Under the pieces are notes generated by a model, which searched no databases, was not told the origin of the DNA, and worked only from the letters and a program-made list of their open reading frames with translations. The position numbers were made by a program, and so were the translations under genes. Shown here in pieces: positions 9,897-39,763 of a stretch of 64,000 nt of DNA; positions within the stretch are counted from its first letter, which is position 1, and each line of letters begins with the position of its first letter. Origin of the DNA: Candidatus Poribacteria bacterium (GTDB lineage: Bacteria; Poribacteria; WGA-4E; WGA-3G); NCBI GenBank assembly GCA_965242965.1, contig OZ251518.1, positions 3,552,001-3,616,000 of the forward strand. Direction: 5' to 3'.

Positions 9897-10011
9897 AACA
9901 GGTTCTCCGTTTTGCTCTATTGGAGCGGGTTAAAGAGTTGATGAAAAGTGGTTGCGTCTCTACTATCATATTATAGCAAAAACGCAAAAATATGCAAGCA
10001 TTTTTTTAATT

Positions 10012-11070: not shown

Positions 11071-12256
11071 CCGCGCATTTTTGGCCATTCGCAAAATCCG
11101 CTGCCAGTTCCCCTGGTGTTTCGCCAAAGGGAGAAAGTCGGTATTTTCCCATAAAAATCATAAACTCGCTATACGGCATGCATGCCAGCCGTGCGGCAAG
11201 TCCGCTGCTGAGTTCATGGGTTTTGTAGTATTTCAATGCTAACATCTGACGAGTCTCTTTTTCACATTCACCCGGGTCTTTCTTGCGAGTCAGCAGGGCG
11301 GCGATGTCCTCTGGCAATTTGATGCCAATTTTCCGTTCAAAATGGCCAACGCTTTTGTAGGTGTCATGGAACGCGGCGATGATATCCAGCACCTTGAACT
11401 TGGCGGCACCCAGGTCTGCTTTTGCCTTGTCCCATTCGCGCAGCCGTAGCCACGCTTCGCCCCGGTAGTAATGCGCCTCAGCATACGCCGGGTTGAGTGT
11501 TATCGCCGTGTTGTAGTCCTGGATCGCGCGTTCGGTTTTCCCTTGGCGAAGGTAAGCCACACCGCGATTGTTGTAAGCAATCGGTTCATCCGGTGCCAAG
11601 GCTATTGCGCGATTATAGTCCGCGATGGCACGTTCGCGCTCACCTTTTCTATCATAGACAATGCCTCGATTGATATACGCCTCGGTGCAATCTGGTTTGA
11701 GCATGATTGCAGTGCTATATTCTGCAATAGCAACGTCAATCTCCTCTTTTTTACACAAAGCGATGCCGCGGTTGACATACGCCTCGGCAAGTTTGGGATC
11801 GAGTGCTATCGCCGTGTTATAGTCTTCAATGGCGACGGCCATCGCTGTCGGATAGGGAGTTTCGCTGCAACGGCTAGGGGCCGGGTTCATGCCTACTGGG
11901 ACGTTATAGCGTTTGAGGATTGCGTCAACCTCGCCGTTTTTTTCGTAAGCGATGCCGCGATTGACGTAGGCTTCGGCAAACGTTGACTCTAATTCAATCG
12001 CCTTGCTCAACACTGTGATAGCCATGTCATGGGAGCCGCATTTGATGGAATCCAACCCCAAATTGTAGTAGGCGTTCACGTAATCCGGACGCAATTCGAT
12101 CGCCTGCATAAAAGCACCGATTGCCAAACCGTGCTCGCCTTCTTCACTATAAGCGATACCGCGGGCGTTGTATGTTTCGGCTAATTCTGCCTCTTGCAGT
12201 GTGTCAAGTGCCGTGTCAGCAAAGCCGACAGGAACTGCGATGAACTCTAGCATCAC
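11042..12256 (-). CDS. TPR-repeat protein fused to a C-terminal UPF0175-like (antitoxin-type) domain
   Basis: About 7 TPRs (AYxNRG...AIxDYxxAI); C-terminus LALKYYKTHELSSGLAARLACMPYSEFMIFMGKY matches the UPF0175 pattern; overlaps the DUF3368 gene. Confidence 0.8.
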   Translation of the reverse strand: MMLEFIAVPVGFADTALDTLQEAELAETYNARGIAYSEEGEHGLAIGAFMQAIELRPDYVNAYYNLGLDSIKCGSHDMAITVLSKAIELESTFAEAYVNRGIAYEKNGEVDAILKRYNVPVGMNPAPSRCSETPYPTAMAVAIEDYNTAIALDPKLAEAYVNRGIALCKKEEIDVAIAEYSTAIMLKPDCTEAYINRGIVYDRKGERERAIADYNRAIALAPDEPIAYNNRGVAYLRQGKTERAIQDYNTAITLNPAYAEAHYYRGEAWLRLREWDKAKADLGAAKFKVLDIIAAFHDTYKSVGHFERKIGIKLPEDIAALLTRKKDPGECEKETRQMLALKYYKTHELSSGLAARLACMPYSEFMIFMGKYRLSPFGETPGELAADFANGQKCADAHTSGNNQ

Positions 12257-12339
12257 TTTTTCTCCTTTACAAAGTTGATTGCGTCTGGGAATATAATAAC
12301 GGATTAGCGGACAGAAGTCAAGCGAAATTCGCGATTTGT

Positions 12340-23283: not shown

Positions 23284-24897
23284 ATGATGCGAACGTTTGA
23301 AACCCGAGGCCCTGTGAATCCCGAAAAGAATTACGTTGTTCGCCGAGAAGGAGAGTTGGCGGATTTCATCTGGCGCGTGAAAGAGGGCCGCTATATCGTC
23401 ATTTTCGCGCCGCGGCAGACAGGCAAGACGACCTTTTTCCGCGCCGCTCTCCAAACTCTCGCAGCGGAAGAACCTACCTATTTTCCGATCGAACTGAATT
23501 TCCAGGTGTATAAAAACGTCGCGCCGGATGCATTCTACGGCCGCGTTTACAGAAAGATTCGTCAGGAAATTGAGGGCGTTTTCCACCAGCGCGGGCAGCC
23601 GCTGTCTGATGCGCTAAGTCAATTTTTGGGGAACGGCTCGGTGCATGATCATCTTTCGCTGCTAGACTTCTTTGAGAACCTCGGAGGCCTCCTAGCACCG
23701 CATCGGGTTGTGCTCATCATTGACGAGTTTGATGGCATCCCATCCGCCGCCGTGAGCGATTTTCTGTATGCACTCCGTGACATCTATCACTCCAAGGCGG
23801 CTACTTCCTGTCCCTATAGCGTGGGCATTGTTGGGGTCAAAAACATTACGCAATTGAACTATGACAGGTCCATTTCGCCGTTCAATGTCCAAGATGAGTT
23901 TGGTTTGCCGAACTTCACGGTTGCACAGGTGGCGGAGCTCTTTGGACAATATACGTCAGAAGTCTGGCAGTCGTTCGCGCCAGAGGTTATTCAGACACTG
24001 CATCGGCAGACAGGTGGCCAACCGTTCCTTGTCAATCGACTTGCGCAAATGCTCACGGAGGAAATGGATATTCCAAATTCGGAGCCAATTGCGATGACGC
24101 ACTTCGCATCCGCACATCGGCAACTCCTTGAAGAAAGGAACGTCAACATCACACACCTGACTACCAATATCCGCAGGAATCCGCGCTTTCAACGCCGCCT
24201 GATGCAAATTACCTCCTACGATGAAAGCATCGGCTTCAATCTAGATGACGACATCCTTAGTGAACTTGCCACCTACGGTGTCATCGTGAGAGGCGAGGAC
24301 GGTATGTGTGAGATTGCCAACCCGATTTATCTCTACCGTATCCTACAAACGTTCCAACCGCTAATAAACGGACTTGAGGAAGAATACTACCCGCAAGACA
24401 CAGGCAACGGGTATCGCGATTATCTCACGCCGGCGGGACAGATTCATATAGTCGGGCTGCTGGATAATTTCCGAGATTTCATTGCGCGCGCGGGGTTCCG
24501 CATCCTAGCAGTGCCGGAAACACCACGAGAATACGTTGGACAGTGCCTCTTGTTTGCCTATCTGGACCAGTTTGTTCGGCAGGTGCGCGGCACTATGCAT
24601 CTAGAAGTGCAGACCGGGCGCGGCCGGGCAGATCTCGTCATTTTCCATCAAGGACAAAAACATATCGTGGAGACTAAACTCTGGCAAGGCGAAAAGAGTT
24701 ATCAAGTTGGTAAAGCGCAACTGTTCGCCTATCTCAAATTGGAAGCCGCGATGGAAGGCTACTATGTCGTCTTCGACCATCGCAGGCATCCTGTGCCGCG
24801 CGTGGAGACAGAGACGTTGGATGGGGTGACGCTTCGGAGTTACGTTATTCCGGTGGTGCAGGAGATGCCTTCTAGCGCGAGAATTGAAAACGCATAA
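23284..24897 (+). CDS. AAA-like ATPase with C-terminal PD-(D/E)xK nuclease-like domain (paralog 1)
   Basis: Walker A APRQTGKTT, Walker B IIDEFD, C-terminal EVQTGRGRADLV...VETK; TTGACA-18-TACAAT promoter at 23211-23240. Confidence 0.85.
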   Translation: MMRTFETRGPVNPEKNYVVRREGELADFIWRVKEGRYIVIFAPRQTGKTTFFRAALQTLAAEEPTYFPIELNFQVYKNVAPDAFYGRVYRKIRQEIEGVFHQRGQPLSDALSQFLGNGSVHDHLSLLDFFENLGGLLAPHRVVLIIDEFDGIPSAAVSDFLYALRDIYHSKAATSCPYSVGIVGVKNITQLNYDRSISPFNVQDEFGLPNFTVAQVAELFGQYTSEVWQSFAPEVIQTLHRQTGGQPFLVNRLAQMLTEEMDIPNSEPIAMTHFASAHRQLLEERNVNITHLTTNIRRNPRFQRRLMQITSYDESIGFNLDDDILSELATYGVIVRGEDGMCEIANPIYLYRILQTFQPLINGLEEEYYPQDTGNGYRDYLTPAGQIHIVGLLDNFRDFIARAGFRILAVPETPREYVGQCLLFAYLDQFVRQVRGTMHLEVQTGRGRADLVIFHQGQKHIVETKLWQGEKSYQVGKAQLFAYLKLEAAMEGYYVVFDHRRHPVPRVETETLDGVTLRSYVIPVVQEMPSSARIENA

Positions 24898-24917: not shown

Positions 24918-25265
24918 CGGTAGGAGAGTCCTCCCAGTCTTGATGCAATAGGGCGGCGCGCCTACCGGGGCCGCGGCAGCAGAAGGTCCCCCTTCATCGT
25001 AGGACGAGGGACAGGCCCTCGCCAGCGTCCGCGGAATCCAACGCGCGCGGGGGACAGGCCCCCGCACTACGAAAAAAACGTCTCTTAGGTCCGTAGGACC
25101 TTAATGTCTATAGCACGCGCGCCCGCGAAGAAGCCTAAGGTCCTTTAGGTCCTTAATAGGTTTTGCCAGGGCCGCGCGTTTTGTTATTAAGGACCTAAAG
25201 GACCTTGAAAACGGGCCGACACGTGCTGCTATAGACATGTAGGTCCTAAAGGACCTAAAACGTCC
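24918..25265. repeat. REP mosaic with about 185-bp palindrome
   Basis: Palindrome at about 25080-25265 plus GTAG hairpins. Confidence 0.85.
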
Positions 25266-25331
25266 TCTTGGGGAGTGCATGCTAAATCCATCGCCGGCTC
25301 GCGGGCGCACTTCTACTGCGCGTGGTCCTGT

Positions 25332-25395
25332 TTTCGCGAAAATGGAATTCCCTCACATTTTTAAGTTGACATTTTAACAGAAAATGTGATAAAAT
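25332..25395 (+). promoter_or_regulatory. Promoter module (copy 1) with an inverted repeat over the -35/spacer
   Basis: TTGACA 25366-25371, TGnTAAAAT 25387-25395; ACATTTT-N5-AAAATGT dyad; near-duplicate at 26295-26358. Confidence 0.7.
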
Positions 25396-25476
25396 ACCAT
25401 AAATGGCAAAGAGGAAACCGGTTGACTCACCGTAGGTTGCTTGGTTTCCATTTTTCTTCAAAGGAGGTGAAAACTT

Positions 25477-26196
25477 GTGAGTGTGGATACGATATTCCCC
25501 AAACTATTTGAACTGCTACCAGATGCAGGTCATTTATTAAGTCTTCAACCGGAGGAACTTGCCGGACCGCTTTTAATCTCTTTAGATGGCAGCGATTACA
25601 TAGAGCCGTTTGCGATTATATCCTTCGATCTTATCCAGAAATACCCGGCTAAGCATGAACAGGACATTCTCTTTGCGCTCATGGAAGCTTGGCAGTGGTT
25701 GGAACGTGAAGGGTTTGTTGCGCCTAGACCGAACGGATCTTCCACCAGGTCCTACTTCGTTACCAGACGCGGCAAGGCCATTGAGACCACCGAGGCTTTA
25801 GAGGTTTATCGCAAGGGAAACCTGTTGCCTAAACGTCAACTTCACCCTACAATCGCTCAAAAGGTATGGTCGCTGTTTTTACGGGGTGACTATGATATTG
25901 CTGTTCTTCAAGCCTTTAAAGAGGTTGAGGTTGCTGTCCGCGAAGCATGCGGATATGCAGACACGGAGTTAGGGGTTAGTTTAATGCGTAAAGCGTTTGG
26001 CGACAAAGGCCCTTTGACAGACCTTAAGCAGCCGCCTGCAGAACGGGAGGCGAGAGCGCATCTATTTGCTGGCGCGATTGGGGCATATAAGAATCCCGGT
26101 AGTCACCGAGATGTTGACCCTACAGCGGAAGAGGCGGCTGAAGTTATAATTTTCGCAAGCCATCTTCTTCGGATTGTTGATTCGCGCAGAGAATAG
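25477..26196 (+). CDS. TIGR02391-like protein
   Basis: LHPTI...AVLQAFKEVEVAVR...GVSLMRKAF...LFAGAIGAYKNPGSH; AGGAGG RBS before GTG. Confidence 0.8.
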   Translation: MSVDTIFPKLFELLPDAGHLLSLQPEELAGPLLISLDGSDYIEPFAIISFDLIQKYPAKHEQDILFALMEAWQWLEREGFVAPRPNGSSTRSYFVTRRGKAIETTEALEVYRKGNLLPKRQLHPTIAQKVWSLFLRGDYDIAVLQAFKEVEVAVREACGYADTELGVSLMRKAFGDKGPLTDLKQPPAEREARAHLFAGAIGAYKNPGSHRDVDPTAEEAAEVIIFASHLLRIVDSRRE

Positions 26197-26294
26197 GTTT
26201 CGCGGACTGAAAAGTCGGGACTGGGACGTGCCTACTACAAGATAAGGGTTGGCAGCAACCCAAATCTGTTCCACATTTCTTAATGGATAACAGA

Positions 26295-26358
26295 TTTCGC
26301 GAAAATTGCATCCCTTCACATTTTTTACTGGACATTTTAACAGGAAATGTGGTATAAT
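26295..26358 (+). promoter_or_regulatory. Promoter module (copy 2)
   Basis: TGGACA-18-TATAAT (26329-26358); homologous to 25332-25395. Confidence 0.65.
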
Positions 26359-26745
26359 TCGCTAAAGTTTGGCAGTTGATGCCGCACTCCACACTCGGCG
26401 CGCCGTTTTCGAGGTGTCTCTCGCGCAAAGATGGTTGACGCAAGTTGTGGATTTTCGATAAAATATGAGTGCAGATGACATATCAACGAAAAACAGCATT
26501 AGTTTTTTCTTGCTATTTTTCGCGCGTTTATGATATGCTATCTGATACGTTATCAATTACGTGTGTTCGTGGCGGCCGCGTCGATAGGCGGTACTCGGAC
26601 ACTACCGATACGGATGAACTCGCACACAACGACGGAGGCAGTCAATTTGCAGACGAAATCCGTGGCATGCGGTGCTGCAACTCCTGAAGAGTTTGTTCGT
26701 GAGACAGACTATTTTTCACGTAATCTGGAAGCCGCAGGAACTGAT

Positions 26746-29346
26746 ATGACACCTGAAGGAATAGTGGTCGAGGAAGTGGTTAACTACTTCTCCGAGACGA
26801 AGTTCCAAAAGTTCTCGATCGAGACAGAATATCCGATTCAGATGGGCTCTGATAACCGGAGAGCCGATGTTGTGCTTATAGATAGCGCGGATAACGCGGA
26901 TAACCTCGTCGCCATTGCTGAATGCAAGCGGGTCGGGGTGGAAGGGCAGGGACTGGATCAGTTAAGGTCTTACCTCAGCGCAACGGATACGCGTTTCGGG
27001 ATATTCGCCAATAGCACATATCCTGCTGCTTGGGATTTTTACGAGAACTTGGGGCGGAATCAGGTTAGCCTTATGACGCGCTCTGAGTTTGAGGAGCGAG
27101 TCGTTAACGGTGAAAATAACCGTGCTCAACCAGATCCGCAATCGGTTCGTTCCGGTTCAACTAAACATTTTGTCAATAAGGGAGGGACTATGAAAATTCG
27201 ACCGACCCTGTATGTCGGCCTTGGGACAACAGGGACAAAAATTCTCAATCATCTCCGAGATCTCAATCATCAAGAATACGGTCAAGCAGGGCTTCCCATT
27301 TTCAGATATATCTCAATTGAAACGGATGGTAGCAAGGATGGGAAAGTATCCTCAATTGACGATGATGGCATCCGCATTGAGTATGATAAAGATGGTGTAC
27401 CCGTAACCGTTGAGTCCGAACTTCGCCCGACTCCTTACGAAGTTAATCACGTGATCCATACACCTATTCCCAATCCAGAATCCATTCATGAGAGGATAAA
27501 TCCGAAGAGTTCAGTGTATGACAAGCACCTCGCCGAATGGTTGGACGCAAATATATTGAACCTTGATGCTGTGCGCCGACCTGGCGGTGCTGGCAACATC
27601 CGGATGGTAGGCCGACTCTCACTCTGGGAAAATTGGAATCAAGGGAACCTCGTGTATCAACGTTTCAGGACAGCCTATGATGCTATTTGGGAAGCAGACA
27701 ATAAGCAACAAGCGAGTACCTTCCTAGAACGTCATTTTGGAGCGGAAGTTACCGTTGATGAAAAAAACCGCAATGTCTTTATCGTCGGTACTCTATGCGG
27801 TGGAACATGTAGCGGAATGCTCGTTGATATTGCTTACTATTTCCGGCAGATTGCAAAAGAAGCTTCAACGATTAATACCTACGTTTACGGACTTTTTACG
27901 ATGCACGACGAAGCACTCGCGTCAGGGGGTGACTCTGCAGTCTTGTTAGCGAACTGTTATGCTAGCCTCGTTGAGTTGGATTACTATAAACGTGATGCAA
28001 CTGAGTATCGTATCACTCTTCCTGGTGGGACTGACTTCCGCACCAAAAATTCCCCATTTGATATTGCTACTTTTCTTTCAGCAACCAATATGGCCGGTGA
28101 AAGATTTGTCGATCCAAATGGCTTATTCGTTCAAGATGAACTTGATCGGATGGTAGCCGCGGACTTGTTTGTTCGAACTCTCGGAATGGATGCCCTCATT
28201 GACGCTGATCTCGTTAATGCGACTGCCGCTTCAGATCTCCAGTTTGAAGCTTTAAGGAACGTAGGTGGCGAAACAGAAAAAGGCTCTTTCGTGCAGTACA
28301 TGTTTAGTTCTGGTTTGAAAAAAGTCTGGTTGCCTAAGGAGAAAATTGTTAGGTTGGCTGCGACGGAATTCATTAAACACCGTCGCTCGGAATGGAGAGA
28401 AAGTCAGCCTGCAACTTCATCCGATTCCGCCGTGTTGGTTCAGGACATTTTAAGAGGCATCAGGCGGAGTCTCAATAAAACGCTGACTGAGCCGCTTACG
28501 CCGTTAACGAACAATCTTGATGGCATCAACTCGGATAACTATCTGCCTGAAGCTCAGAGATGCTTAACGGCTTTTATCAATGGGGGTGAACGCTACAACC
28601 TCGTTAATGGAAATAGACTTGATTCCTTGACACAAGCTGTTGGAATCCTTAAAGATGCGGTCCGCAGTTTTGAAGGCACATCCCAGATGTTTCCTAAGAA
28701 GGTTTATCTCACGCGAATTGAGGAACTTCTGCAAGCCGAATTGAGGGATTCCAAATACCCGGATAACCTTGATTCGCGGGACGACATTCTAATATTTATC
28801 ACTGAAGCGGAGAACAGTGCCGAGCAAAAATCCAGGTTTGGCCGAGACACGTTCAATCTGCCAGGTTTCAAGGGGGCAATCTTGCAACAACAAGAGGAGT
28901 TGAACACGCGATTGATTAACTTCTTTGTTAAGGGTATTCTGAATGACCTGCGGAGCGAAGTGCGAAAATGGCTCCAGAGTCTGGAAAGGGAAATAAACGA
29001 GATTGAATCAAAATTCAACTCGGTTATTTGGGTCTTTGACGACCCGTCCGAAATTGAAAAGCAGGCAGCGGATGACTTTGTTTCAGAAATTCTTCAACGT
29101 GAGTCTAGCACTCCAAGTGTTGAGGAACTGATTCGCGTATTGCGCAAGACAGAAGCTGCTGGTCTTCATTGGCACATACGGAATGAGTTGAGACCTGCTT
29201 TTAACGGTATCGCGCCAGATCTAATGCTAGAATTTGACGAAGAAGCTGTCAGACGTTCTCGTCCCTATCAGACTTTTACGCCTAACTACATGGAAAACTA
29301 TAGGCTAAGGTTTGAACGGAGCGGCGGCGAGATTCGGCTATTTTGA
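26746..29346 (+). CDS. HsdR-N-like PD-(D/E)xK nuclease domain fused in frame to a tubulin/FtsZ-like (Tubulin_2) protein; ends at an in-frame TGA
   Basis: RRADVV...IAECK...QLRSY...FGIFAN; internal GGAGGG + ATG at 27190 (MKIRPTLYVGLGTTG); GAGNIRMVGRL; signature GTLCGGTCSG at about 27787-27816. Confidence 0.78.
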   Translation: MTPEGIVVEEVVNYFSETKFQKFSIETEYPIQMGSDNRRADVVLIDSADNADNLVAIAECKRVGVEGQGLDQLRSYLSATDTRFGIFANSTYPAAWDFYENLGRNQVSLMTRSEFEERVVNGENNRAQPDPQSVRSGSTKHFVNKGGTMKIRPTLYVGLGTTGTKILNHLRDLNHQEYGQAGLPIFRYISIETDGSKDGKVSSIDDDGIRIEYDKDGVPVTVESELRPTPYEVNHVIHTPIPNPESIHERINPKSSVYDKHLAEWLDANILNLDAVRRPGGAGNIRMVGRLSLWENWNQGNLVYQRFRTAYDAIWEADNKQQASTFLERHFGAEVTVDEKNRNVFIVGTLCGGTCSGMLVDIAYYFRQIAKEASTINTYVYGLFTMHDEALASGGDSAVLLANCYASLVELDYYKRDATEYRITLPGGTDFRTKNSPFDIATFLSATNMAGERFVDPNGLFVQDELDRMVAADLFVRTLGMDALIDADLVNATAASDLQFEALRNVGGETEKGSFVQYMFSSGLKKVWLPKEKIVRLAATEFIKHRRSEWRESQPATSSDSAVLVQDILRGIRRSLNKTLTEPLTPLTNNLDGINSDNYLPEAQRCLTAFINGGERYNLVNGNRLDSLTQAVGILKDAVRSFEGTSQMFPKKVYLTRIEELLQAELRDSKYPDNLDSRDDILIFITEAENSAEQKSRFGRDTFNLPGFKGAILQQQEELNTRLINFFVKGILNDLRSEVRKWLQSLEREINEIESKFNSVIWVFDDPSEIEKQAADDFVSEILQRESSTPSVEELIRVLRKTEAAGLHWHIRNELRPAFNGIAPDLMLEFDEEAVRRSRPYQTFTPNYMENYRLRFERSGGEIRLF

Positions 29347-30003
29347 TATTTGCACACCAACCAGCACAAATCGGAAGATGCCTCTAGGCTGAGGTCGAGT
29401 GCACAGGTTGACTCCAAAGATTTCCCAATCCGGAATCTCCGCGTCCTTTATCAGATGGAAGCCGGTTATACTCTGGATGACCTTGGGGTAGTTGAACACC
29501 TCAAAACCGAATATGATACCGCTCTGTCAAAATACATAGAGCACGGAGGTTTTCCTATCCATATTCATAAGGATCCGGACGAGTTCAACGTAGATGCAAT
29601 TCACCGGGCCGCAGAAGTTGAGACTCTCTGGAGAGCTATTCGAGAATTACTCGGTTTAATTCGTGAGTCATATCCCGATCGATTCGGGCATGTCTTACTA
29701 CCTAATGGAAGCCTTAACGAAAATAGCGCATTCCCTGTTGGCGAATTGGCAGCTAGAATTCAAGGAAAAAGAATTGCATCGACTTTTATTGATGACAACG
29801 CGGGACACGAGGAATTGGCCCGAAATGCCGAGGCATGTGCTAACTTTGTTAGTGCGACCCGGACCGAGTTTAAAAATCTTCAAGAGGAATCGCCTTCCCT
29901 CAGTGCTCTGATTAACGAGTTCAACGCACAGATTGAGGATAACGTGGCACGTCAAAAGAGCGAACAATTCTATGATGAGCTGCTAAAGTCTCTTGAAAAA
30001 TGA
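29347..30003 (+). CDS. C-terminal continuation of the tubulin-like protein, same frame after the single TGA
   Basis: TTT TGA TAT TTG keeps frame; no SD before TTG 29350; LYQMEAGYTLDDL...Y...FPIHIHK resembles C-termini of this family. Confidence 0.6.
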   Translation, partial: YLHTNQHKSEDASRLRSSAQVDSKDFPIRNLRVLYQMEAGYTLDDLGVVEHLKTEYDTALSKYIEHGGFPIHIHKDPDEFNVDAIHRAAEVETLWRAIRELLGLIRESYPDRFGHVLLPNGSLNENSAFPVGELAARIQGKRIASTFIDDNAGHEELARNAEACANFVSATRTEFKNLQEESPSLSALINEFNAQIEDNVARQKSEQFYDELLKSLEK

Positions 30004-30113
30004 GTCTAGTCTTCTCGCTGAGCCGCCGAAACGGACACGCCGCAGGACTCTCCTTTCCCTCAATTCGCGAGCGGAAAGGAGAGTCCCCGCGCGGCACCGA
30101 TTGCCGAACCGCC

Positions 30114-31508
30114 ATGGAAACCCCACTCCAAATCGCTTTTGATAAAGGCACCCTCATCCTCCAACACATCCCAGAAGCACTCCAGCCGCACTTGGCAGAA
30201 CTCCGCTGGGACGAGCGCACGCTCACCTATCGCGCACCTGCCTATCGCTATCGACAGATTATCTCGCAACTGCTGGCGCATAACATCCCCTATCAAGATA
30301 ATGCACGCCAGTTTACCGTCGAACCGTTTGTGCTCCAAAAGACGTTGCCTCCCTATCCTTACCAGACCGAGGCAGTTGACGCATGGCACGCCAACGGCAA
30401 GCGCGGCGTGATTAGTCTCCCTACAGGGGCCGGCAAGACCTTCATCGCCGTGATGCTTATCGCCGATACGCAACGTCCCACGCTTGTGCATGTGCCCACC
30501 ATCGATCTGATGCATCAGTGGTATACTGTGCTTCGCGAGTATTTCGGCACCGAGGTGGGGCTTTATGGCGGCGGTTATCACGAATTGGCATCGCTCACCG
30601 TGACGACGTATCAGTCGGCAGTCATGCACGCGCCCCATTACGGCAATCGATTCGGTCTGGCGATTTTTGACGAGTGCCATCACCTCCCCGGTCAGCAGTA
30701 TCAGTATACGGCTATCAGTAGCATCGCGCCGTTTCGGCTAGGTTTAACGGCAACGCCTGAACGGACAGATGGCGGGGAGACCCGGTTGTATTCCCTCGTC
30801 GGCGAGTGTTGTTATGAGGCGAAGGTGCAGGAGCTCTCTGGCAAGACGTTATCGCCGTATCGCGTCGTCACGATTGCGGTTGAGATGGAGGACACGGAGC
30901 GGGTGCGTTATGAGGCGGCGCGCCTCACTTATCTCGATTTCCTCAAGAAGGCGAACATTAATATGGGCGCGGGACGTGGATGGCAGACGTTCCTCTGGAA
31001 ATCGTCTCAAACGGTGGCGGGACGCGAGGCGTTCAAGGCGTATCTAACACAGAAGCAGCTCAGTTTCGCATCGACGAAGAAGCAGGAGTGGGTGTGGAAG
31101 TTAATCCAGCGGCACCGCGGCGACCGGATGCTCATTTTCACACAGGATAATAATACCGCGTATCAACTCGGCGTGCGGTTTTTTCTGCCGGTGCTGACGC
31201 ATCAGACGAAGTTGAAGGAGCGGAACGCCTTTTTGGAGAATTTCCGCAACGGCACGTATTCTATCCTCGTTACGTCGAAAGTGCTCAATGAGGGGGTGGA
31301 TGTGCCGGAGGCGAACGTGGCTATCATCGTATCGGGGAGTGGGAGTGTGCGCGAACATGTGCAGCGGTTGGGACGTATCTTGCGGAAACGTGAGGGGAAG
31401 CAGGCGGTGCTTTACGAACTCATCTCCAAGGAAACGGGTGAACATTTTGTGAATAAACGGCGGCGGCGACATCATGCTTACGAAGGACCTGGTTCGGTAT
31501 CACATTGA
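30114..31508 (+). CDS. XPB/Rad25-like SF2 DEAD/DEAH helicase
   Basis: LPTGAGKT, DECHH, LGLTATPER, NEGVDVP, QRLGRILR. Confidence 0.92.
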   Translation: METPLQIAFDKGTLILQHIPEALQPHLAELRWDERTLTYRAPAYRYRQIISQLLAHNIPYQDNARQFTVEPFVLQKTLPPYPYQTEAVDAWHANGKRGVISLPTGAGKTFIAVMLIADTQRPTLVHVPTIDLMHQWYTVLREYFGTEVGLYGGGYHELASLTVTTYQSAVMHAPHYGNRFGLAIFDECHHLPGQQYQYTAISSIAPFRLGLTATPERTDGGETRLYSLVGECCYEAKVQELSGKTLSPYRVVTIAVEMEDTERVRYEAARLTYLDFLKKANINMGAGRGWQTFLWKSSQTVAGREAFKAYLTQKQLSFASTKKQEWVWKLIQRHRGDRMLIFTQDNNTAYQLGVRFFLPVLTHQTKLKERNAFLENFRNGTYSILVTSKVLNEGVDVPEANVAIIVSGSGSVREHVQRLGRILRKREGKQAVLYELISKETGEHFVNKRRRRHHAYEGPGSVSH

Positions 31509-32814
31509 AAATGGGCACATCGTCCCGCAATTCATAGAGCCCACCGATGCGGCGTTGTTGGCTATTGCCGAGCAACTCATCGCGGTTTTCGAGGATTCGC
31601 CGGGCAAGCCGAGAAACGCTGTCTTGGAGGAAAGCAAGGAGATTATTGATGCCGCATCGGGAATACTAGTAGTCAAGCGCGGACTTGAAAAGCTGCTGTT
31701 GGATCGGACGGAGTTTGACACTGCGCCGAATGAAGAACTCATCGCGTTTCGGGAGAAGTTGTTTACGGCGACGAGTCGGTTGCTTTCGGGAGAGGCGTTT
31801 GAAGATGATGCGGCGTATCGGCGGCGCGTGGAAGAAATCGCGCGCTTGGACAGCGAGCCTAGCGGACAGGAAGAGCTGCGCGCGAGGCTTTACGCGGATT
31901 TGCCGAGTTGTCAACCTGTTGTGGCGTTCAAGACGCTTTCGCCTGAACGGTTGCTGCATCGATATAACTGCGCGCAGGTGCAGGGGTTGCTGCTGCACTG
32001 TAATACGCTAACCTTGCGGCTTGCGGATTCAATGACGGCGGAGTTGCGGCAGCTGTTTAAGTATTTGCGGTTTCATCAGTTGTTGTCGACGATTCAGAAA
32101 GAATCGGGACCGGGGGTATCGAAGCCAGAGGGGTTTTCCGATGAGGCATCGAGACTAGGGGAGTTTTCCGGTGGTGCATCGAGACCAGGAGGTCTCGCCT
32201 ACGGGGAGGAGAAGGCGTTTTATCAGATTACGGTGGATGGGCCGCTGAATCTGTTTTACAAGACGAAGCGGTATGGCATGAATCTGGCGAATTTCTTTGT
32301 TGCGGTGCTGCATCAGCCGGAGTGGGAGTTGATGGCGGAGATCCGACTTCGGCATCAGCCGACTTATCAGTTGCGTTTAGATGAATCTTGCGGTATCAAG
32401 CCGATTTCGCAGCAGTTCCTCGCCTATATTCCGGAGGATATCCAACTTTTTCAGACGATGCTTCACAATAAAACGGATGCATGGCGCGTTACGCCGGGGA
32501 GTCATTTTCTCCCTTTGATGGGCGATTTTTACTGTTTTCCGGATTACGCGCTGGTGCATCAAAGTGGTGTGGAGGCGGCGATTGAGTTATTTCATCCGTG
32601 GCATCAGGGGCATCTCATCGCGCGGCTGAACACCCTTGCGGAACATTCCGCCGCAACAAACCTGATTTTGGGAGTCTCTACCGAGTTGTCAAAGCAGCCG
32701 ATGCTTGCGGCGGCGTTGGAGGCATCGGCATATTTCTCGGCATTTGGGTTCACGTTCCGTTCTGTGCCGACGATGGGCGCGTTGCTTCCGATTTTGGAGT
32801 CGCTGGTTGGCTGA
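31474..32814 (+). CDS. DUF790 (Bax1-like) endonuclease, partner of XPB
   Basis: MLTKDL start, RYNCAQVQGLL, DGPLNLF...YG, FPDY...IELF; overlaps the helicase gene; in-frame REP insert at about 32110-32205. Confidence 0.85.
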   Translation: MLTKDLVRYHIENGHIVPQFIEPTDAALLAIAEQLIAVFEDSPGKPRNAVLEESKEIIDAASGILVVKRGLEKLLLDRTEFDTAPNEELIAFREKLFTATSRLLSGEAFEDDAAYRRRVEEIARLDSEPSGQEELRARLYADLPSCQPVVAFKTLSPERLLHRYNCAQVQGLLLHCNTLTLRLADSMTAELRQLFKYLRFHQLLSTIQKESGPGVSKPEGFSDEASRLGEFSGGASRPGGLAYGEEKAFYQITVDGPLNLFYKTKRYGMNLANFFVAVLHQPEWELMAEIRLRHQPTYQLRLDESCGIKPISQQFLAYIPEDIQLFQTMLHNKTDAWRVTPGSHFLPLMGDFYCFPDYALVHQSGVEAAIELFHPWHQGHLIARLNTLAEHSAATNLILGVSTELSKQPMLAAALEASAYFSAFGFTFRSVPTMGALLPILESLVG

Positions 32815-32917: not shown

Positions 32918-34558
32918 ATGAAATGGTTTGAAACGCGAGGCCCCGTGAACCCTGAAGATAACTACGTCGTTGCTCGGCCGGCTGAGCTTGCGGATTTCAT
33001 CAAGCGAGTGAAACGGGGCCGCTACGTCGTGCTCTTCGCGCCGCGTCAAACGGGGAAGACGACGTTCTTCAAGACTGCGCTAGAGATGTTGGAAACCGCC
33101 GAAGCAGGCGCATATCTCCCGATACAACTCAATTTTGAGGCGTATAACAACCTCGCCAGTCTTGATTTTTACGAGGCACTCTACGAAGATATTCGCGAAG
33201 AAATAACGGGCGTTTTTCGTCGGCAAGGAAAAGTGCCGTCGGATGCCCTCGTCCACCTTTTGGAGAACACGAAACTCACGACAGCACTTTCTATGAGAAG
33301 GTTCCTGACTCAGTTAGGGGAATCGCTCTCCCCGCTGCGGGTTGTCATCATTATTGATGAGTTTGATGGCATCCCGCAAGCCGCCCTCAGCGATTTTCTG
33401 CATACGCTCCGGCACATCTACCTCCTGGGGAGGAAGGAACGCTGTCCCTACAGTGTCGGCATCGTTGGCGTAAAGAGCATCACGCAGCTGAATTACGATA
33501 GGACTATCTCACCGTTCAATGTTCAGGATGAGTTCCACTTGCCGAATTTCACGTTGGCGCAGGTGCAGGAATTGCTCGGAGAATATACCGCGGAGGTGGG
33601 ACAGGCGTTCGCGCCGGCTGTCATTGAGACGCTGCATCGGCAGACAGGTGGGCAGCCGTTTCTTGTCAACCGTCTGGCGCAGCTACTCACTGAGGAGATG
33701 GACATTCCGAAGACAGAGACGATTACCGCCGCGCACTTCGCGCAGGCACATCAGGAAATTCTGGGTGAATACAACGTCAACATTGCGCATCTCCGGACGA
33801 ATATCCGCAGAAACCCGCGCTTTCAGCGTCAGCTCATGCAAATCATCTCCTACGATGAAGGCGTGAGATTCAATCCGGACGATGACATCCTCAGTGAATT
33901 GGCTACCTACGGTGTCATCGCAAAGGGGGAGCGAGGCTTGTGTGAGATTGCGAACCCGATTTATCTTTACCGCATCTTGCAAACGTTTGAACCGTTGATT
34001 AACGGGCTGGAGCAAGACTACTATCCGCAGGACACGGGCAACGGGTATCACGATTACCTCACGGCGGATGGCGCGATAGCCATGGAGCGGTTGCTGGATA
34101 ACTTTCGGGATTTCATTGCGCGCGCGGGGTTCCGCATCTTGCAAGTGCCGGATACCCCGCGGGAATATGTCGGACAATATCTGCTGTTCGCCTATCTAGA
34201 TCAGTTTGTCCGCCAGGTGCGGGGTGCGATGCATTTGGAGGTGCAAACCGGGCGCGGTCGGGCAGACCTGGTGATATTCCATCACGGCCAGAAACATATC
34301 GTGGAGACGAAGATTTGGCAGGGCGAAAAGAGTTATCGCGCGGGCAAGGCGCAACTGTCTGCGTATCTAAAACTGGAAGGCGTGCCGGCGGGATACTATG
34401 TGGTGTTCGATCATCGTGAAACGCCGGTGCCGCGCGTGGAAACGGAAACGGTGGAGGGACAGACGATTCGGAGTTACGTCATTCCGGTCGTGCAAAAACG
34501 TCCATCAACAGCGAGTGACAGCGACGGTGCGATGCCCGTTGAGAGGAGTGAACCATGA
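32918..34558 (+). CDS. AAA-like ATPase/PD-(D/E)xK protein (paralog 2)
   Basis: Same motifs as 23284-24897; ATGA overlap with the next gene. Confidence 0.87.
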   Translation: MKWFETRGPVNPEDNYVVARPAELADFIKRVKRGRYVVLFAPRQTGKTTFFKTALEMLETAEAGAYLPIQLNFEAYNNLASLDFYEALYEDIREEITGVFRRQGKVPSDALVHLLENTKLTTALSMRRFLTQLGESLSPLRVVIIIDEFDGIPQAALSDFLHTLRHIYLLGRKERCPYSVGIVGVKSITQLNYDRTISPFNVQDEFHLPNFTLAQVQELLGEYTAEVGQAFAPAVIETLHRQTGGQPFLVNRLAQLLTEEMDIPKTETITAAHFAQAHQEILGEYNVNIAHLRTNIRRNPRFQRQLMQIISYDEGVRFNPDDDILSELATYGVIAKGERGLCEIANPIYLYRILQTFEPLINGLEQDYYPQDTGNGYHDYLTADGAIAMERLLDNFRDFIARAGFRILQVPDTPREYVGQYLLFAYLDQFVRQVRGAMHLEVQTGRGRADLVIFHHGQKHIVETKIWQGEKSYRAGKAQLSAYLKLEGVPAGYYVVFDHRETPVPRVETETVEGQTIRSYVIPVVQKRPSTASDSDGAMPVERSEP

Positions 34559-36195
34559 AATGGTTTGAAACGCGAGGGCCCGTTAACCCTGAAGATAACT
34601 ACGTTGTTGCTCGGCCGGCTGAGCTTGCGGATTTCATCAAGCGAGTGAAACGGGGCCGCTACGTCGTGCTCTTTGCGCCGCGCCAAACAGGGAAGACGAC
34701 GTTCTTCAAGACTGCGCTAGAGATGCTGGAAACCGCCGGAGAAGGCGCATATCTCCCGATACAACTCAATTTTGAGATTTATGAAGGCTATGGCCGTGCC
34801 GAGTTCTATGGCAGTCTCCGCGAAAATATTTGTATGGAAATAGCGGCAGTTTTTCGTCAGCGTCGCATTCCGCTTACTGAAGAGTTGGCAGACTTTTTGG
34901 CGAACGCGCCGCTAACAAATTCGCTTTCACTGGGAAGTTTCTTTCGGCAACTCGGACTGCTGCTAGCCCAGCAACGGGTTGTCCTCCTCATTGACGAGTT
35001 TGATGCTATCCCGCGGGAGGAATTGCGCAATTTTCTGCGGACGCTCCGGTATATCTACCTGCTAGGGCGGAAGGAACGCTGTCCCTATAGCGTCGGCATC
35101 GTTGGCGTGAAGAGCATCACGCAGTTGGACTACGATAGGACTATCTCGCCGTTCAATATTCAGGATGAGTTCCACTTGCCGAATTTCACGTTGGCGCAGG
35201 TGCAGGAACTGCTTGGAGAATATACGGCGGAAGTCGGACAAGCATTTGCACCTGCCGTTGTTGAATCCCTGCATCGGCAGACAGGTGGGCAGCCGTTTCT
35301 TGTCAACCGTTTGGCGCAGCTGCTCACCGAGGAGATGGACATCTCACAGACAGAAACGATTACCGCCGTGCACTTCGCGAAAGCGCATCAGCACATTCTG
35401 GGTGAAGACAACGTCAACCTTGTGCATCTCCGGACGAATGTCCGCAGAAACCCGCGCTTTCAGCATCGCCTGATGCAAATCATTTCCTACGATGAAGGCG
35501 TTGACTTCAATCTTGATGACGACATCCTCAGTGAATTGGCTACCTACGGTGTCATCGCAAAGGGGGAGAGAGGCTTGTGTGAGATTGCGAACCCGATTTA
35601 TCTTTACCGGATTTTGCGGACATTTCAACCGTTTATCAACGGGCTGGAGCAGGACTACTATCCGCAGGACACGGGCAACGGTTACCACGATTACCTCTCG
35701 GCGGAGGGTGCTATTGCCATGGAGCGGTTGCTGGATAACTTTCGGGATTTCATTGCGCGCGCCGGGTTCCGCATCTTACAAGTGCCGGATACCCCGCGGG
35801 AATATGTCGGACAGTATTTGCTGTTCGCCTACTTGGACCAGTTTGTTCGGCAGGTGCGCGGTGCGATGCATCTGGAGGTGCAAACCGGGCGGGGCCGGGC
35901 AGATTTGGTGATATTCCATCAAGGCCAGAAACATATCGTAGAGACGAAGATTTGGCAGGGCGAAAAGAGTTATCGCGCCGGTAAGGCGCAACTGTCTGCG
36001 TATCTAAAATTGGAAGGCGTGTCGGCGGGATACTATGTCGTCTTCGATCATCGTGAAACGCCGGTGCCGCGCGTGGAGATGGAAACGGTGGAGGGACGAA
36101 CGATTCGGAGTTACGTCATTCCGGTGCTGCAAAAACGTCCGTCAACCGCGGTTGACAGCGAGAGGACGATGCCCGTTGAGAGGAGTGAACCATGA
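34555..36195 (+). CDS. AAA-like ATPase/PD-(D/E)xK protein (paralog 3)
   Basis: Starts 1637 bp after paralog 2; N- and C-terminal DNA nearly identical to it. Confidence 0.87.
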   Translation: MKWFETRGPVNPEDNYVVARPAELADFIKRVKRGRYVVLFAPRQTGKTTFFKTALEMLETAGEGAYLPIQLNFEIYEGYGRAEFYGSLRENICMEIAAVFRQRRIPLTEELADFLANAPLTNSLSLGSFFRQLGLLLAQQRVVLLIDEFDAIPREELRNFLRTLRYIYLLGRKERCPYSVGIVGVKSITQLDYDRTISPFNIQDEFHLPNFTLAQVQELLGEYTAEVGQAFAPAVVESLHRQTGGQPFLVNRLAQLLTEEMDISQTETITAVHFAKAHQHILGEDNVNLVHLRTNVRRNPRFQHRLMQIISYDEGVDFNLDDDILSELATYGVIAKGERGLCEIANPIYLYRILRTFQPFINGLEQDYYPQDTGNGYHDYLSAEGAIAMERLLDNFRDFIARAGFRILQVPDTPREYVGQYLLFAYLDQFVRQVRGAMHLEVQTGRGRADLVIFHQGQKHIVETKIWQGEKSYRAGKAQLSAYLKLEGVSAGYYVVFDHRETPVPRVEMETVEGRTIRSYVIPVLQKRPSTAVDSERTMPVERSEP

Positions 36196-37814
36196 GATAT
36201 TTTGAGACGCGAGGACCCGTGAATGCCGAGGAGAACTACGTTGTCGCGCGGCTGCAGGAGACAGCGGATTTTATGAGGCGCGTGGCGTTGGGACGGTATA
36301 TCGTGCTTTTTGCGCCGCGTCAGACAGGGAAGACGACGTTCTTCAAAACGGCTGCAGAGCGGCTGGAGACAGAGGAGGCAGGTGCCTATCTTCCGATACA
36401 ACTCAATTTTGAGATTTATGAAGATTGGCACGGTTCTGAATCGGAGTTTTACGGCGTTTTCTACCAGCGGCTTTGCCAAGAGCTTGCGAACGTTTTTCGC
36501 GAGCGGCAACCACACCCGGGTCCAGCCGCCTTAACGCAGTTTTTGGAGAATACCGCGATAACCGACCGGTTTTCACTACTGGCGTTTTTTGAAGCCCTCG
36601 GGCGGCTCCTTGGCAACCAGCGCGTTGTGCTCATCATTGACGAGTTTGATGCGATTCCGCCGCCCGCGGTGAAAGGCTTCCTCCGCACGCTCCGGCACAT
36701 CTATATTTCGGGCAAACCTCGGTGTCCACATAGCGTCGCCATTGTCGGCGTGAAAAATATCACGCAGTTGAACTATGATAGGACTATCTCGCCGTTCAAT
36801 GTGCAGGATGAGTTCCATCTGCCGAACTTCACGTTGGCGCAGGTGCAGGAATTGCTCGGAGAATATACGGCAGAAGTCGGACAGGCGTTCGCGCCGGCTG
36901 TCATTGAAACGCTGCATCGGCAGACAGGTGGGCAGCCGTTTCTTGTCAACCGTCTGGCGCAGCTACTCACTGAGGAGATGGACATTCCGAAAACGGAAAC
37001 GATTCACCTGGGACACTTTTCCGGGGGGCATGCGCAAATCCTGCACGAACAAAATGTCAACATCCATCACCTCACTACCAATATCCGCAGAAACCCGCGC
37101 TTTCAGCGTCAGCTCATGCAAATCATCTCCTACGATGAAGGCGTGAGATTCAATCTGGAAAATGACATCCTCAGTGAATTGGCTACCTACGGTGTCATCG
37201 CAAAGGGGGAGGGCGGCTTATGTGAGATTGCGAACCCGATTTATCTTCACCGCATCTTGCAAACGTTTGAACCGCTGATTAACGGGTTGGAACAAGAATA
37301 CTATCCACAGGACACGGGCAACGGGTATCACGATTACCTCACGGCGGATGGCACTATTGCCATGGGGCGGTTGCTGGATAACTTCCGCGATTTCATTGCG
37401 CGCGCCGGGTTCCGCATTCTGCAAGTGCCGGATACCCCGCGGGAATATGTCGGACAGTATCTACTGTTGGCCTACTTGGACCAGTTTGTCCGCCAGGTGC
37501 GGGGTGCGATGCATCTGGAGGTGCAAACCGGGCGGGGCCGGGCAGACCTGGTGATATTCCATCAAGGCCAGAAACACATCGTGGAGACGAAGATTTGGCA
37601 GGGCGAAAAGAGTTATCGCGCGGGTAAGGCGCAGTTGTCCGCGTATCTAAAACTGGAAGGCGTGCCGGCGGGTTACTATGTCGTCTTCGATCATCGCGAA
37701 ACGCCGGTGCCGCGCGTGGAAACGGAAACGGTGGAGGGACGGACGATTCGGAGTTACGTCATTCCGGTCGTGCAAGAACGTCCCTCAGTAATGACAACGG
37801 AGGAAACATCATGA
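36192..37814 (+). CDS. AAA-like ATPase/PD-(D/E)xK protein (paralog 4)
   Basis: Starts 1637 bp after paralog 3; ATGA overlaps on both sides. Confidence 0.87.
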   Translation: MRYFETRGPVNAEENYVVARLQETADFMRRVALGRYIVLFAPRQTGKTTFFKTAAERLETEEAGAYLPIQLNFEIYEDWHGSESEFYGVFYQRLCQELANVFRERQPHPGPAALTQFLENTAITDRFSLLAFFEALGRLLGNQRVVLIIDEFDAIPPPAVKGFLRTLRHIYISGKPRCPHSVAIVGVKNITQLNYDRTISPFNVQDEFHLPNFTLAQVQELLGEYTAEVGQAFAPAVIETLHRQTGGQPFLVNRLAQLLTEEMDIPKTETIHLGHFSGGHAQILHEQNVNIHHLTTNIRRNPRFQRQLMQIISYDEGVRFNLENDILSELATYGVIAKGEGGLCEIANPIYLHRILQTFEPLINGLEQEYYPQDTGNGYHDYLTADGTIAMGRLLDNFRDFIARAGFRILQVPDTPREYVGQYLLLAYLDQFVRQVRGAMHLEVQTGRGRADLVIFHQGQKHIVETKIWQGEKSYRAGKAQLSAYLKLEGVPAGYYVVFDHRETPVPRVETETVEGRTIRSYVIPVVQERPSVMTTEETS

Positions 37815-38307: not shown

Positions 38308-39763
38308 ATGAGAAATGCCCTCTATTTTGGCGATAACCTCAACGTCATGCGCGAGATGCAAACCGCGCGCTACCACACCTGCTATCTCGATCCGCCGTTT
38401 AACAGCGGCCGCAACTACAACATCTTCCTCGCCGGCTCAAAAGCGCAACGCAAAGCGTTTGACGACATCTGGCGATGGGACGATGCCGCCCGCGAAAACC
38501 AAGCTGCTGTCCTTCACTACGCTCACTACGATGGACGGCACCCTGAACTCGTTGAAACCATGGACAATTTGTCGGATTGTTTAACAGGATTTGACCAAAT
38601 TTTGAAGGGGGGGGTATAAGGGCAAAAACGCGGATTCGATGCGTGCCTATCTCGCCTTCATGGCACCGCGCCTCGCGGAGATTTGGCGTTTACTAACGCC
38701 GGATGGAAGTGTGTATCTGCACTGCGACCCGCACGCAAGTCATTATCTGAAGGTGATGATGGACATTATCTTTGGTGCCAACCAATTCCAGAATGAATTC
38801 ATCTGGTATTATGGCGGCGGTGGTGCATCAAAACGGCGTTGGGCACGAAAACACGATGTCCTCCTTTTCTATACAAAGGGGAGTTCGTGGACATTCAACC
38901 TTGATGCTGTCCGCACGCCGCACAAGTGGAATAAGGGGCAAAAACGGGCAGACGGTTCGGAACGGGCGGAATCCGGTAAGATTCCTGACGATGTGTTTCA
39001 GTATCACTCGCTTATGCCCTGGTCAAAGGAGCGTCTTGGATATCCGACACAAAAGCCGCTTGCGCTGTTGGAACGCATCATTAAAGCCTCCTCTAACCCC
39101 GGCGACATCATCTTCGATCCGTTCTGTGGCTGTGGCACGGCGTTAGATGCCGCGCATGGACTCGACAGGCACTGGGTAGGCATCGATTTGACGGTGCTCG
39201 CTTTGGAACCGATGGAGCGGCGGCTGCGCGAACGTCACGGACTTACCCCCAAAGTCGATTACGACATCGAGGGATACCCCACGACGTGTCAGGATGCCAT
39301 CCTCCTCGCCGAGCAGAATCCGCACGATTTTGCAAACTGGGCCGTCACGCGATTGGGACTTTCTCCGACGGCGAACAGCAACGATGGCGGGTTTGATGGC
39401 ACGGGGAAGGTGCTACTTTGGGAAAACAGCCGCGCGGCGATGCAGCTGCCGGTTATCGCCGAAGTGAAATCGGGGCGGAGTTTGAACCTGAATCAGGTGC
39501 GCGCGTTCCGCACGGCGATGCAAGACGCGAACGCCGCCCTTGGGATTTTCATTACGCTGCACCCTGTCACGCGCGGGATGCGGAACCTCGCCGAAGCAGA
39601 AGGGACAATTGAGCATAACGGCAAACGATACCCGCGTTTGCAATTCTGGCAGGTAACGGATGCCTATTTTACGGATGGGCTTATTCCGGTGAAGTTGCCG
39701 TGGCAGATAGATGAGCGTCCGAAGGCGGCGCGGCATTATAGCGGGGAGCAGACCTATTTTTAA
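38308..39763 (+). CDS. Beta-class N4/N6 DNA methyltransferase with C-terminal Mrr-like endonuclease, split at a G8 tract (38607-38614)
   Basis: 5' ORF has GDNL, YLDPPFNS; 3' ORF has YPTQKP, FDPFCGCGT and DGGFDG...AEVKSG. Removing one G gives one 484-aa frame. Confidence 0.85.

Follow-up and report, generated by a model that had tools for sequence, protein, structure and literature searches.

The window analysed here is a 64,000-nucleotide stretch of a Candidatus Poribacteria genome (GenBank assembly GCA_965242965.1, contig OZ251518.1, positions 3,552,001 to 3,616,000), and the gene under study, called below the nuclease-tubulin gene, occupied window positions 26746-30003 on the + strand, with residues numbered from the ATG at 26746. 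Its frame was open from 26530, offered candidate starts at 26614 and 26746, ended at a TGA (29344-29346) and ran on in the same frame to a further TGA (30001-30003). The ATG at 26746, with an AGGA 6 nt upstream, was at the start position called in most homologues. An earlier note on this DNA, made from the letters alone, had described an HsdR-N-type nuclease domain joined in one frame to a Tubulin_2-like domain, and the Pfam scan from ATG 26746 recovered both: HSDR_N_2 (PF13588; aa 11-98, E 3.6e-9, 37.1 bits for a cut-off of 25) and Tubulin_2, also named FtsZl1 (PF13809; aa 155-544, E 3.4e-44, 152 bits for a cut-off of 27, covering profile positions 1-352 of 356). Overall, the tubulin-like part followed the FtsZl1 layout, with an N-terminal GTP-binding domain, a long helical region and then a conserved C-terminal block.

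Domains and premature stop of the nuclease-tubulin gene

The HSDR_N_2-type PD-(D/E)xK domain covered aa 1-125 (26746..27120, + strand) and possessed the ADVV...ECK...Q..SY motif given in the earlier note, with D41, E59-x-K61 and Q72xxxY76 aligning with the equivalent residues of a type IIG-like enzyme encoded in the same genome (HSDR_N_2 match of that enzyme, E 6.7e-27). All 20 fused sequences in alignment A1 kept the D..ExK..QxxxY signature, even those of the divergent P0027-P0029 group (~50% identity). The domain is under selection, and the retention of the catalytic motif in all 20 fused sequences aligned argues that this selection acts on nuclease activity. The domain resembled the endonuclease domain of type I HsdR and type IIG enzymes by its above-cut-off HSDR_N_2 match and its shared motif, but differed from them in what follows it, a tubulin-like GTPase instead of a superfamily 2 (SF2) motor or a methyltransferase. 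No SF2 helicase/motor or methyltransferase domain was found after the nuclease domain, and no HsdM/HsdS or methyltransferase was present among the annotated neighbours scanned. A PDB sequence search with the nuclease domain alone returned 0 matches at E up to 10.

Among the best 120 longer proteins with this nuclease subfamily, 23 were Tubulin_2 fusions and most were of a coiled-coil type of 720-800 aa, with others joined to DprA or to an OB-fold domain (PF13742). In the window's own genome, the subfamily was found fused C-terminally to DprA (L004), between DnaJ_C and a coiled coil with the E of ExK changed to V (L005), and N-terminally to Macro (L006). The same genome also possessed three tandem open reading frames (ORFs) of 943, 937 and 705 aa (L007-L009, G000:C1:3775476-3784874), each starting with HSDR_N_2; the one scanned continued into N6_Mtase/Eco57I and was type IIG-like.

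The Tubulin_2 GTP-binding domain extended from an internal ATG at 27190 to 28377 (+ strand), and the VGLGTTG and GTLCGGTCSG motifs of the earlier note were both present, as the candidate T1 (GLGTTG) and T4 loops respectively. GLGTTG and the two cysteines, C350 and C354, were invariant in 86 aligned family members. Membership of Pfam Tubulin_2 is secure. The GTPase domain was 41% identical to that of a classical FtsZl1 paralogue of the same genome, and the C-terminal block was common to the classical paralogues.

Similarity to FtsZ and tubulin themselves was faint at the profile level. The Pfam Tubulin family (PF00091) matched with an E of 0.24, and a first hhalign attempt against 12 poribacterial FtsZ sequences aligned 52 columns with a probability of 0.3%. 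With 132 diverse Tubulin_2 domains, hhalign aligned 64 columns over S4-T4-H4-S5-H5, weakly (E 0.031, probability 1.6%), with T4-H5 opposite the GGGTGTG...H5 of FtsZ; global mode was meaningless. An assignment of LLANCYASLVELD to the T7 loop was dropped, as hhalign placed LLANCYASLVELD at H5. A PDB search with the full-family profile gave helical-repeat matches only (best, apolipoprotein A-IV, E 2.8e-6) and no tubulin or FtsZ. The relationship of FtsZl1 to FtsZ and tubulin is taken here from PMC2875224 and PMC9871819, and polymerisation of the nuclease-tubulin protein is presumed.

The GTP-binding domain was followed by a variable helical middle region (28378..29343, + strand), where the protein diverged most in both segment and sliding comparisons (27-39% identity to homologues), and, past the first TGA, by the C-terminal ~217 codons of the ancestral gene (29347..30003, + strand), with the family-wide YQMEAG..DD and HIH motifs. 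No Pfam domain was detected in the remaining 320 aa before TGA 29344 or in the 217 codons beyond. No hydrophobic segment was found in the protein, and membrane anchoring was dropped as a candidate, because the hydropathy peak (maximum Kyte-Doolittle mean over 19 residues) was only 1.66 and was located at the T4 strand.

The best homologue, P0001, was intact, with 1084 aa corresponding to 866 + 1 + 217 codons, and 94% identical to the window gene; it read RLF-R-YLH where the window read RLF-stop-YLH. In alignment A1 (n=25), the column of the stop codon held Arg in the aligned homologues and Lys in one. The allele was further checked on Logan contigs of four sequencing runs (X1, X2, X5 and X6), compared over 28900-29800. 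A T was present at 29344 in X1, X2 and X5 (two studies, one of them possibly the window's own source; word depths of 96, 21 and 1448), and a C in X6, a sponge metagenome of a third study, whose contig was 98% identical (17 differences over 901 bases) and matched P0001 residues at its other differences. As T was found in three runs from two studies, C in a near-identical contig, and Arg or Lys in all 25 aligned homologues, the TGA at 29344..29346 (+ strand; CGA, Arg, in the intact allele) is a real and recent CGA-to-TGA nonsense allele, fixed in one strain population, and not an assembly error. Recoding of TGA was ruled out, since the gene's own terminal stop is TGA, the homologues carry Arg and the C allele exists.

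Apart from this single stop, the frame was intact, and the region past it was still 96-98% identical to P0001. Between the window allele and the intact allele, the ratio of non-synonymous to synonymous differences was 3:2 before the stop and 5:4 after it, numbers too small to show relaxed selection. Across 86 sequences, the C-terminal columns past the stop included an invariant Y901, and G906, D910, D911 and others conserved at 90% or more. Because the lost part holds motifs conserved across the aligned FtsZl1 set, the truncated product of the window gene is probably inactive, and the genome is probably without the function of the family. The stop had only been touched on in the earlier note ('stop repaired'); the nuclease-carrying defence gene proposed there stood as an architecture, but the copy in the window is a nonsense allele, probably without function.

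Fusion, internal start and module exchange in the family

Among the 120 listed of 239 homologue matches, 22 clusters of 1063-1145 aa possessed both Pfam domains and 20 clusters of 918-1004 aa possessed no nuclease domain, while three further clusters (P0027-P0029) had a divergent yet recognisable one. The same architecture thus occurs elsewhere, and the fusion is a true and recurrent trait of the family and not a pair of split genes joined by a lost stop. Seven of the nuclease-free clusters were located on contigs of 44 kb to 6.3 Mb and, given these long contigs, are true stand-alone genes. In a quick maximum-likelihood tree of the bodies, built from 51 rows (the first 45 of alignment A2 and six outgroups, with the other 35 rows of A2 left out; 24 fused, 26 unfused and one unlabelled), at least five changes between the fused and unfused states were needed, and fused clades stood beside long-contig unfused clades three times.

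A representative library of 1.84 billion proteins contained 1539 relatives of the body (E up to 0.001). The best 150 of these 1539 showed a long N-terminal extension only in P0001 and P0016, both HSDR_N fusions, and in P0248, a distant protein of 2019 aa that combined TIR_2, a protein kinase and two Tubulin_2 domains and is another effector-type fusion on a Tubulin_2 scaffold. On this basis, the nuclease fusion belongs to this clade alone, whose named records were all metagenome-assembled genomes of Candidatus Poribacteria (sponge symbionts). Close relatives were present in 3/159 genomes of the order, namely the window's genome, G036 (unfused) and G147 (fused). Among 15 loci from the scan of genome contigs, L010 and L011 were the only close ones, and the scan of metagenome contigs yielded 16 loci, all distant (24-35% identity) and with no fused relative among them. 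In G036, downstream of the stand-alone tubulin-like gene (L010 13361-14540; G036:C1:2294021-2294410), small coiled-coil ORFs were found together with a 330-aa frame, which matched query aa 399-536 at 58% identity and looks like a fragment of a second copy.

Conservation was uneven along the protein. Eight homologues compared with the window were 83-90% identical over the nuclease domain, 57-59% over the tubulin domain and 31-33% over the helical middle, and in P0007 and P0014 identity jumped to 95-100% from ~aa 941 to the end. The alleles of the family are mosaics with sharp breakpoints.

The linker between the two domains (27121..27189, + strand) ended in the Shine-Dalgarno (SD)-like AAGGGAGGG (27178-27186), which encodes a conserved K-G-G ahead of Met149. 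In the arrangement AAGGGAGGG-N3-ATG (27178-27192), this stretch lay 3 nt ahead of ATG 27190, the codon of Met149. The internal ribosome-binding site and start pointed out in the earlier note therefore exist, and tubulin-only relatives begin exactly at the Met matching this ATG. Met149 was at least 90% conserved and [KR][GE][GEA]xM was found in 20/20 fused sequences, the rest of the linker being variable. At the DNA level, an SD-like motif preceded Met149 in 2/2 fused loci (the window, and L011 with AGAGGTG), and the tubulin-only gene of L010 had its own AAGGAG-N8-ATG with non-coding DNA upstream. We infer from this arrangement that the internal start is used for a nuclease-free form; it could equally be a relic that keeps the body exchangeable.

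The origin of the fusion was approached through syntenic loci. L084, from a same-genus genome, was collinear with the window over genes for an S49 peptidase, a 2-hydroxyacid dehydrogenase (89%), an AAA_35 ATPase, the slot gene, XPB (94%), Bax1 (81%) and a further AAA_35. The L084 slot gene (9925-12291) encoded 788 aa, of which the first ~130 residues were 83% identical to the window nuclease domain and the remainder consisted of a coiled coil and hydrophobic segments; it was followed by a 302-aa ORF. DNA identity between the window and L084 was 84% over 26294-27101 (promoter and nuclease domain), was lost there, and resumed (89%) at 30113, one base ahead of the likely XPB start, Met39 (30114). 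L085, from another genus, possessed the dehydrogenase, an HSDR_N-coiled-coil gene, a 310-aa ORF, XPB and Bax1 in the same order.

Because L084 and L085 keep the same order, the coiled-coil version is the resident state of the slot. Judging by the breakpoints against L084, window positions 27102..30112 (+ strand; ~3 kb, GC content 0.465) are a swapped-in cassette, with a tubulin-like body in place of the coiled-coil/membrane body and the 302-aa ORF, and the fusion at this locus arose by cassette exchange. The promoter and nuclease part is the resident, vertically inherited 5' end, and the swapped-in body comes with an SD and ATG of its own. The poribacterial HSDR_N-coiled-coil-membrane proteins (~720-800 aa; P0059, P0071 and L084) shared with the window gene the same promoter, leader and N-terminal domain (83-92% identity), as well as the same slot upstream of XPB/Bax1 in G049 and G134, but their body after aa 125 was unrelated, and the window lacked their ~300-aa partner ORF. 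Their coiled coils gave weak SMC/LmuB-like matches. In all cases, the HSDR_N-coiled-coil-membrane gene was followed by an ORF of 302-310 aa (L084 12374-13282, L085 6827-7759, L086 6975-7904) with no Pfam, PADLOC or NCBIfam match, and the two look like a conserved two-gene module. The alternative N-terminal effectors anticipated in the earlier note were thus represented by the single distant TIR-kinase-Tubulin_2 protein; what the family offered instead was a constant nuclease head with alternative C-terminal bodies.

The higher AT content noticed earlier was also recovered, with a GC content of 0.46 over 27-30 kb compared to 0.55-0.57 in the XPB and dehydrogenase genes; the low stretch also spanned the upstream Ymh gene (0.489) and the nuclease-domain part (0.479). 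Upstream of the nuclease-tubulin gene lay a promoter-like 72-nt element (26295..26366, + strand; TGGACA-18-TATAAT with TG, flanked by CACATTTT/AAATGTG inverted repeats). It was the second copy of a direct repeat, the first copy, 82% identical, being located at 25332-25403 before the Ymh gene. The 72-nt sequence also preceded the syntenic gene in L084, and no third copy was found in the 5.7-Mb genome of the window. As the genome holds no other copy, the repeat pair suggests a shared operator of the Ymh and nuclease-tubulin genes.

Neighbouring genes

The neighbours named in the earlier note were all present. Upstream was a Hypoth_Ymh/TIGR02391 gene of the HEPN family (25477..26196, + strand), preceded by one of the two promoter-repeat copies; downstream were XPB (30114-31508) and DUF790/Bax1 (31474-32814), and four paralogous AAA_35 ATPase genes were located at 23284-24897, 32918-34558, 34555-36195 and 36192-37814. 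Between the gene stop and the XPB start, a hairpin with a 14-bp stem and no T-run was predicted (30045..30086, + strand; minimum free energy of -46.2 kcal/mol for 30004-30113, z -3.09). An XPB start at 30000, overlapping the gene stop, is probably wrong, since homology and DNA synteny begin at Met39 (30114).

XPB and DUF790, presented in the earlier note as part of the defence-like surroundings, turned out to be core genes and were rejected as functional partners: Bax1/DUF790 was present in 109/111 genomes of the family and 111/159 of the order. Among the genomes with compared coordinates, Bax1 adjoined an HSDR_N gene only in G000 (the window's own), G049 and G134, with a remnant in G115, and was otherwise usually distant. 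Ymh belongs to the HEPN family and is often found in restriction-modification operons, according to PMC3710099. It was present in 45/159 genomes but in neither of two same-genus genomes, and in G036 and G147 it was separated by megabases from the tubulin-like genes; being unlinked in these two, it was rejected as a partner.

The genomic context was compared at the DNA level for three loci, the window, L010 and L011. No neighbour was common to the three, in agreement with the stand-alone status proposed earlier: L011 was flanked by DDE transposase genes and L010 by trmD and RNase HII. The lack of vWA or GTPase partners noted earlier was also confirmed, as no vWA, GTPase, OmpA, MotA or HSP70 gene stood beside the window gene, and none of these partners was found at L010 or L011. 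DO-GTPase and GAP1 were likewise absent beside the window gene, by exclusion, as the flanking genes have other identities and no GAP1/DO-GTPase models were applied. The partners lost by the window gene are shown by the second Tubulin_2 gene of the same genome (L071, G000:C1:2514000-2533900), which was found in a classical context comprising a MotA/ExbB-like gene, OmpA, two unassigned ORFs (467 and 643 aa), Tubulin_2 (1141 aa), an HSP70-like gene (928 aa) and a 405-aa ORF. The nuclease-tubulin gene sits in a variable, defence-like slot.

Other features were observed around this slot. Three of the AAA_35 genes were in tandem with overlapping stops and starts, two were syntenic in the same-genus genome, and each showed a faint match of Cas4-like/PDC-S54 type around aa 437-487 (E ~0.008). 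One ORF at 38639-39763 combined an N6_N4 DNA methyltransferase with an Mrr_cat restriction-nuclease domain and was followed by genes for an APH-family kinase and an ABC-F ATPase. Between the upstream AAA_35 gene and the Ymh gene (25094-25272), nested inverted repeats on AAGGTCCTTTAGGTCCT, with 22-nt arms that were 100% complementary, may represent either a terminator or a small repeat element.

Interpretation and significance

The gene is a lineage-restricted FtsZl1/Tubulin_2 offshoot of Candidatus Poribacteria that has lost the usual partner genes and of which many alleles carry an N-terminal PD-(D/E)xK domain whose catalytic motifs are intact. There is about an even chance that the intact protein would be a single-polypeptide conflict protein, directed against phages or mobile elements, in which GTP-driven self-assembly would bring nuclease domains together to cut DNA. 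Sensing would take place on the surface of the fast-evolving helical middle, the tubulin-like domain would drive self-assembly by binding GTP, and assembly would bring the N-terminal nuclease domains together for DNA cleavage, while the internal start could supply nuclease-free subunits that set a threshold. The points counted for such a conflict role were the sporadic distribution, the transposase flanks of L011, the HEPN/Ymh and methyltransferase-Mrr neighbours, the hypervariable middle, the TIR-kinase-Tubulin_2 protein and the published proposal (PMC7159879) of tubulin homologues as multimerising components of conflict systems. A bolder version, which we consider improbable, would be a one-gene immune machine in which invaders are sensed through a cassette-shuffled helical region, the GTPase then polymerises and clustered nucleases cut DNA; nuclease-free subunits from the internal start would dilute the filament and so set the trigger threshold, and the promoter-nuclease 5' end would act as a docking site for the exchange of bodies.

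Several observations weigh against a conflict role or against parts of it. The broken allele persists in the data of at least two studies, and the gene is dispensable there. The nuclease subfamily is a general DNA-handling module in Poribacteria and not in itself a defence marker, as it is also fused to DprA, OB-fold, DnaJ_C and Macro. PADLOC-DB 2.0 gave no whole-protein system match, its sole match (E 7.6e-8) pairing aa 15-96 with the nuclease-like segment of a type I methyltransferase model, and the C-terminal piece was without a match. Concerning assembly, the profile likeness to FtsZ is weak (E 0.031, probability 1.6%), and PMC2875224 reports that T6-H7/T7, which FtsZ-type filaments require, and the C-terminal domain are not identifiable in FtsZl1, describing filaments as likely but leaving the matter open. 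The stand-alone status comes from a context comparison of three loci. Some tubulin-only clusters came from contigs that scarcely exceeded the gene in length, and their calls may have been cut short at the 5' end; the body of one of them, P0044, was identical to that of the fused P0014.

The DNA-handling links of the nuclease subfamily, and the adjacency of the slot to the core repair pair XPB/Bax1, would also fit a DNA-associated cytoskeletal or DNA-handling protein without an immune role, which might tether or move DNA, for example, with the nuclease domain binding or processing DNA and the tubulin-like part serving as a scaffold. FtsZl1 was first proposed as a membrane-remodelling factor, according to PMC2875224. 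Such a role seems doubtful, as the gene is sporadic (3/159 genomes), its alleles evolve fast and are mosaic, transposase genes flank one locus and a nonsense allele is tolerated; the XPB/Bax1 adjacency itself was found in only four genomes of those compared (G000, G049, G134 and the remnant in G115). A similarly unlikely reading takes the gene for a hot spot whose 5' end is constant and prone to recombination, the nuclease domain being no more than this end and serving as an address or for regulation; the swapped body would then work as in classical FtsZl1 systems, and the fusion would add little function. The complete stand-alone tubulin gene with its own SD in L010, the interleaving of fused and unfused forms on the tree, the conservation of the N-terminal domain and promoter at the level of the flanking orthologous DNA (84% compared to 89% for XPB) and the presence of the same N-terminus on an unrelated coiled-coil/membrane body all point in this direction. 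Against it, D..ExK..QxxxY was kept in all 20 fused sequences aligned, which argues for selection on activity, and the in-frame fusion was kept in 22 clusters among the 120 listed. A decaying pseudogene or a fusion artefact is very improbable: the premature stop at 29344 and the absence of the family from most related genomes would agree with it, but the frame is intact save for that one stop, the region past it remains 96-98% identical to P0001, an intact allele circulates in a sponge metagenome, and the architecture is kept across alleles that are only ~50% identical.

The single-polypeptide conflict protein preferred here would resemble STAND/Avs-type immune proteins with restriction endonuclease effectors, which are oligomerisation-activated nucleases. 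The likeness is one of proposed logic only, in which a single polypeptide would combine a variable sensor, a module for NTP-dependent assembly and, at its N-terminus, a PD-(D/E)xK effector; the NTPase would be tubulin-like and not a P-loop STAND, and no homology is claimed. Compared to FtsZl1/Tubulin_2 as described by Makarova & Koonin (2010), the gene had a strong Pfam match and the same layout, but was without vWA, GTPase, OmpA, MotA or HSP70 neighbours and carried the N-terminal PD-(D/E)xK domain. What is new relative to classical FtsZl1 is a partner-free protein with a restriction-type nuclease in the same polypeptide. The architecture also appears to be undescribed: besides the lack of a PADLOC system, the NCBIfam scan of the protein gave no family match, and the literature search returned no description of a nuclease-tubulin fusion, although the supplementary family and neighbourhood tables of PMC2875224 and PMC7159879, which were outside the search, may list such fusions.

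The family occurs only in sponge symbionts that have not been cultivated, which limits how it can be approached, and the near-identical intact and nonsense alleles form a natural pair. The locus also illustrates cleanly, in nature, how modules are exchanged inside a gene, with a constant nuclease head, alternative bodies and sharp breakpoints. Kaur et al. 2020 (PMC7159879) discuss tubulin homologues as components that multimerise within GTPase-centric conflict systems. For tubulin-like proteins, a role in prokaryotic conflict systems is so far a proposal that has never been demonstrated, and in it they are always one of several components. If true, a form that needs no partner and bears an enzymatic effector in the same polypeptide would be the simplest handle on whether FtsZl1 assembles and whether this assembly gates the effector.

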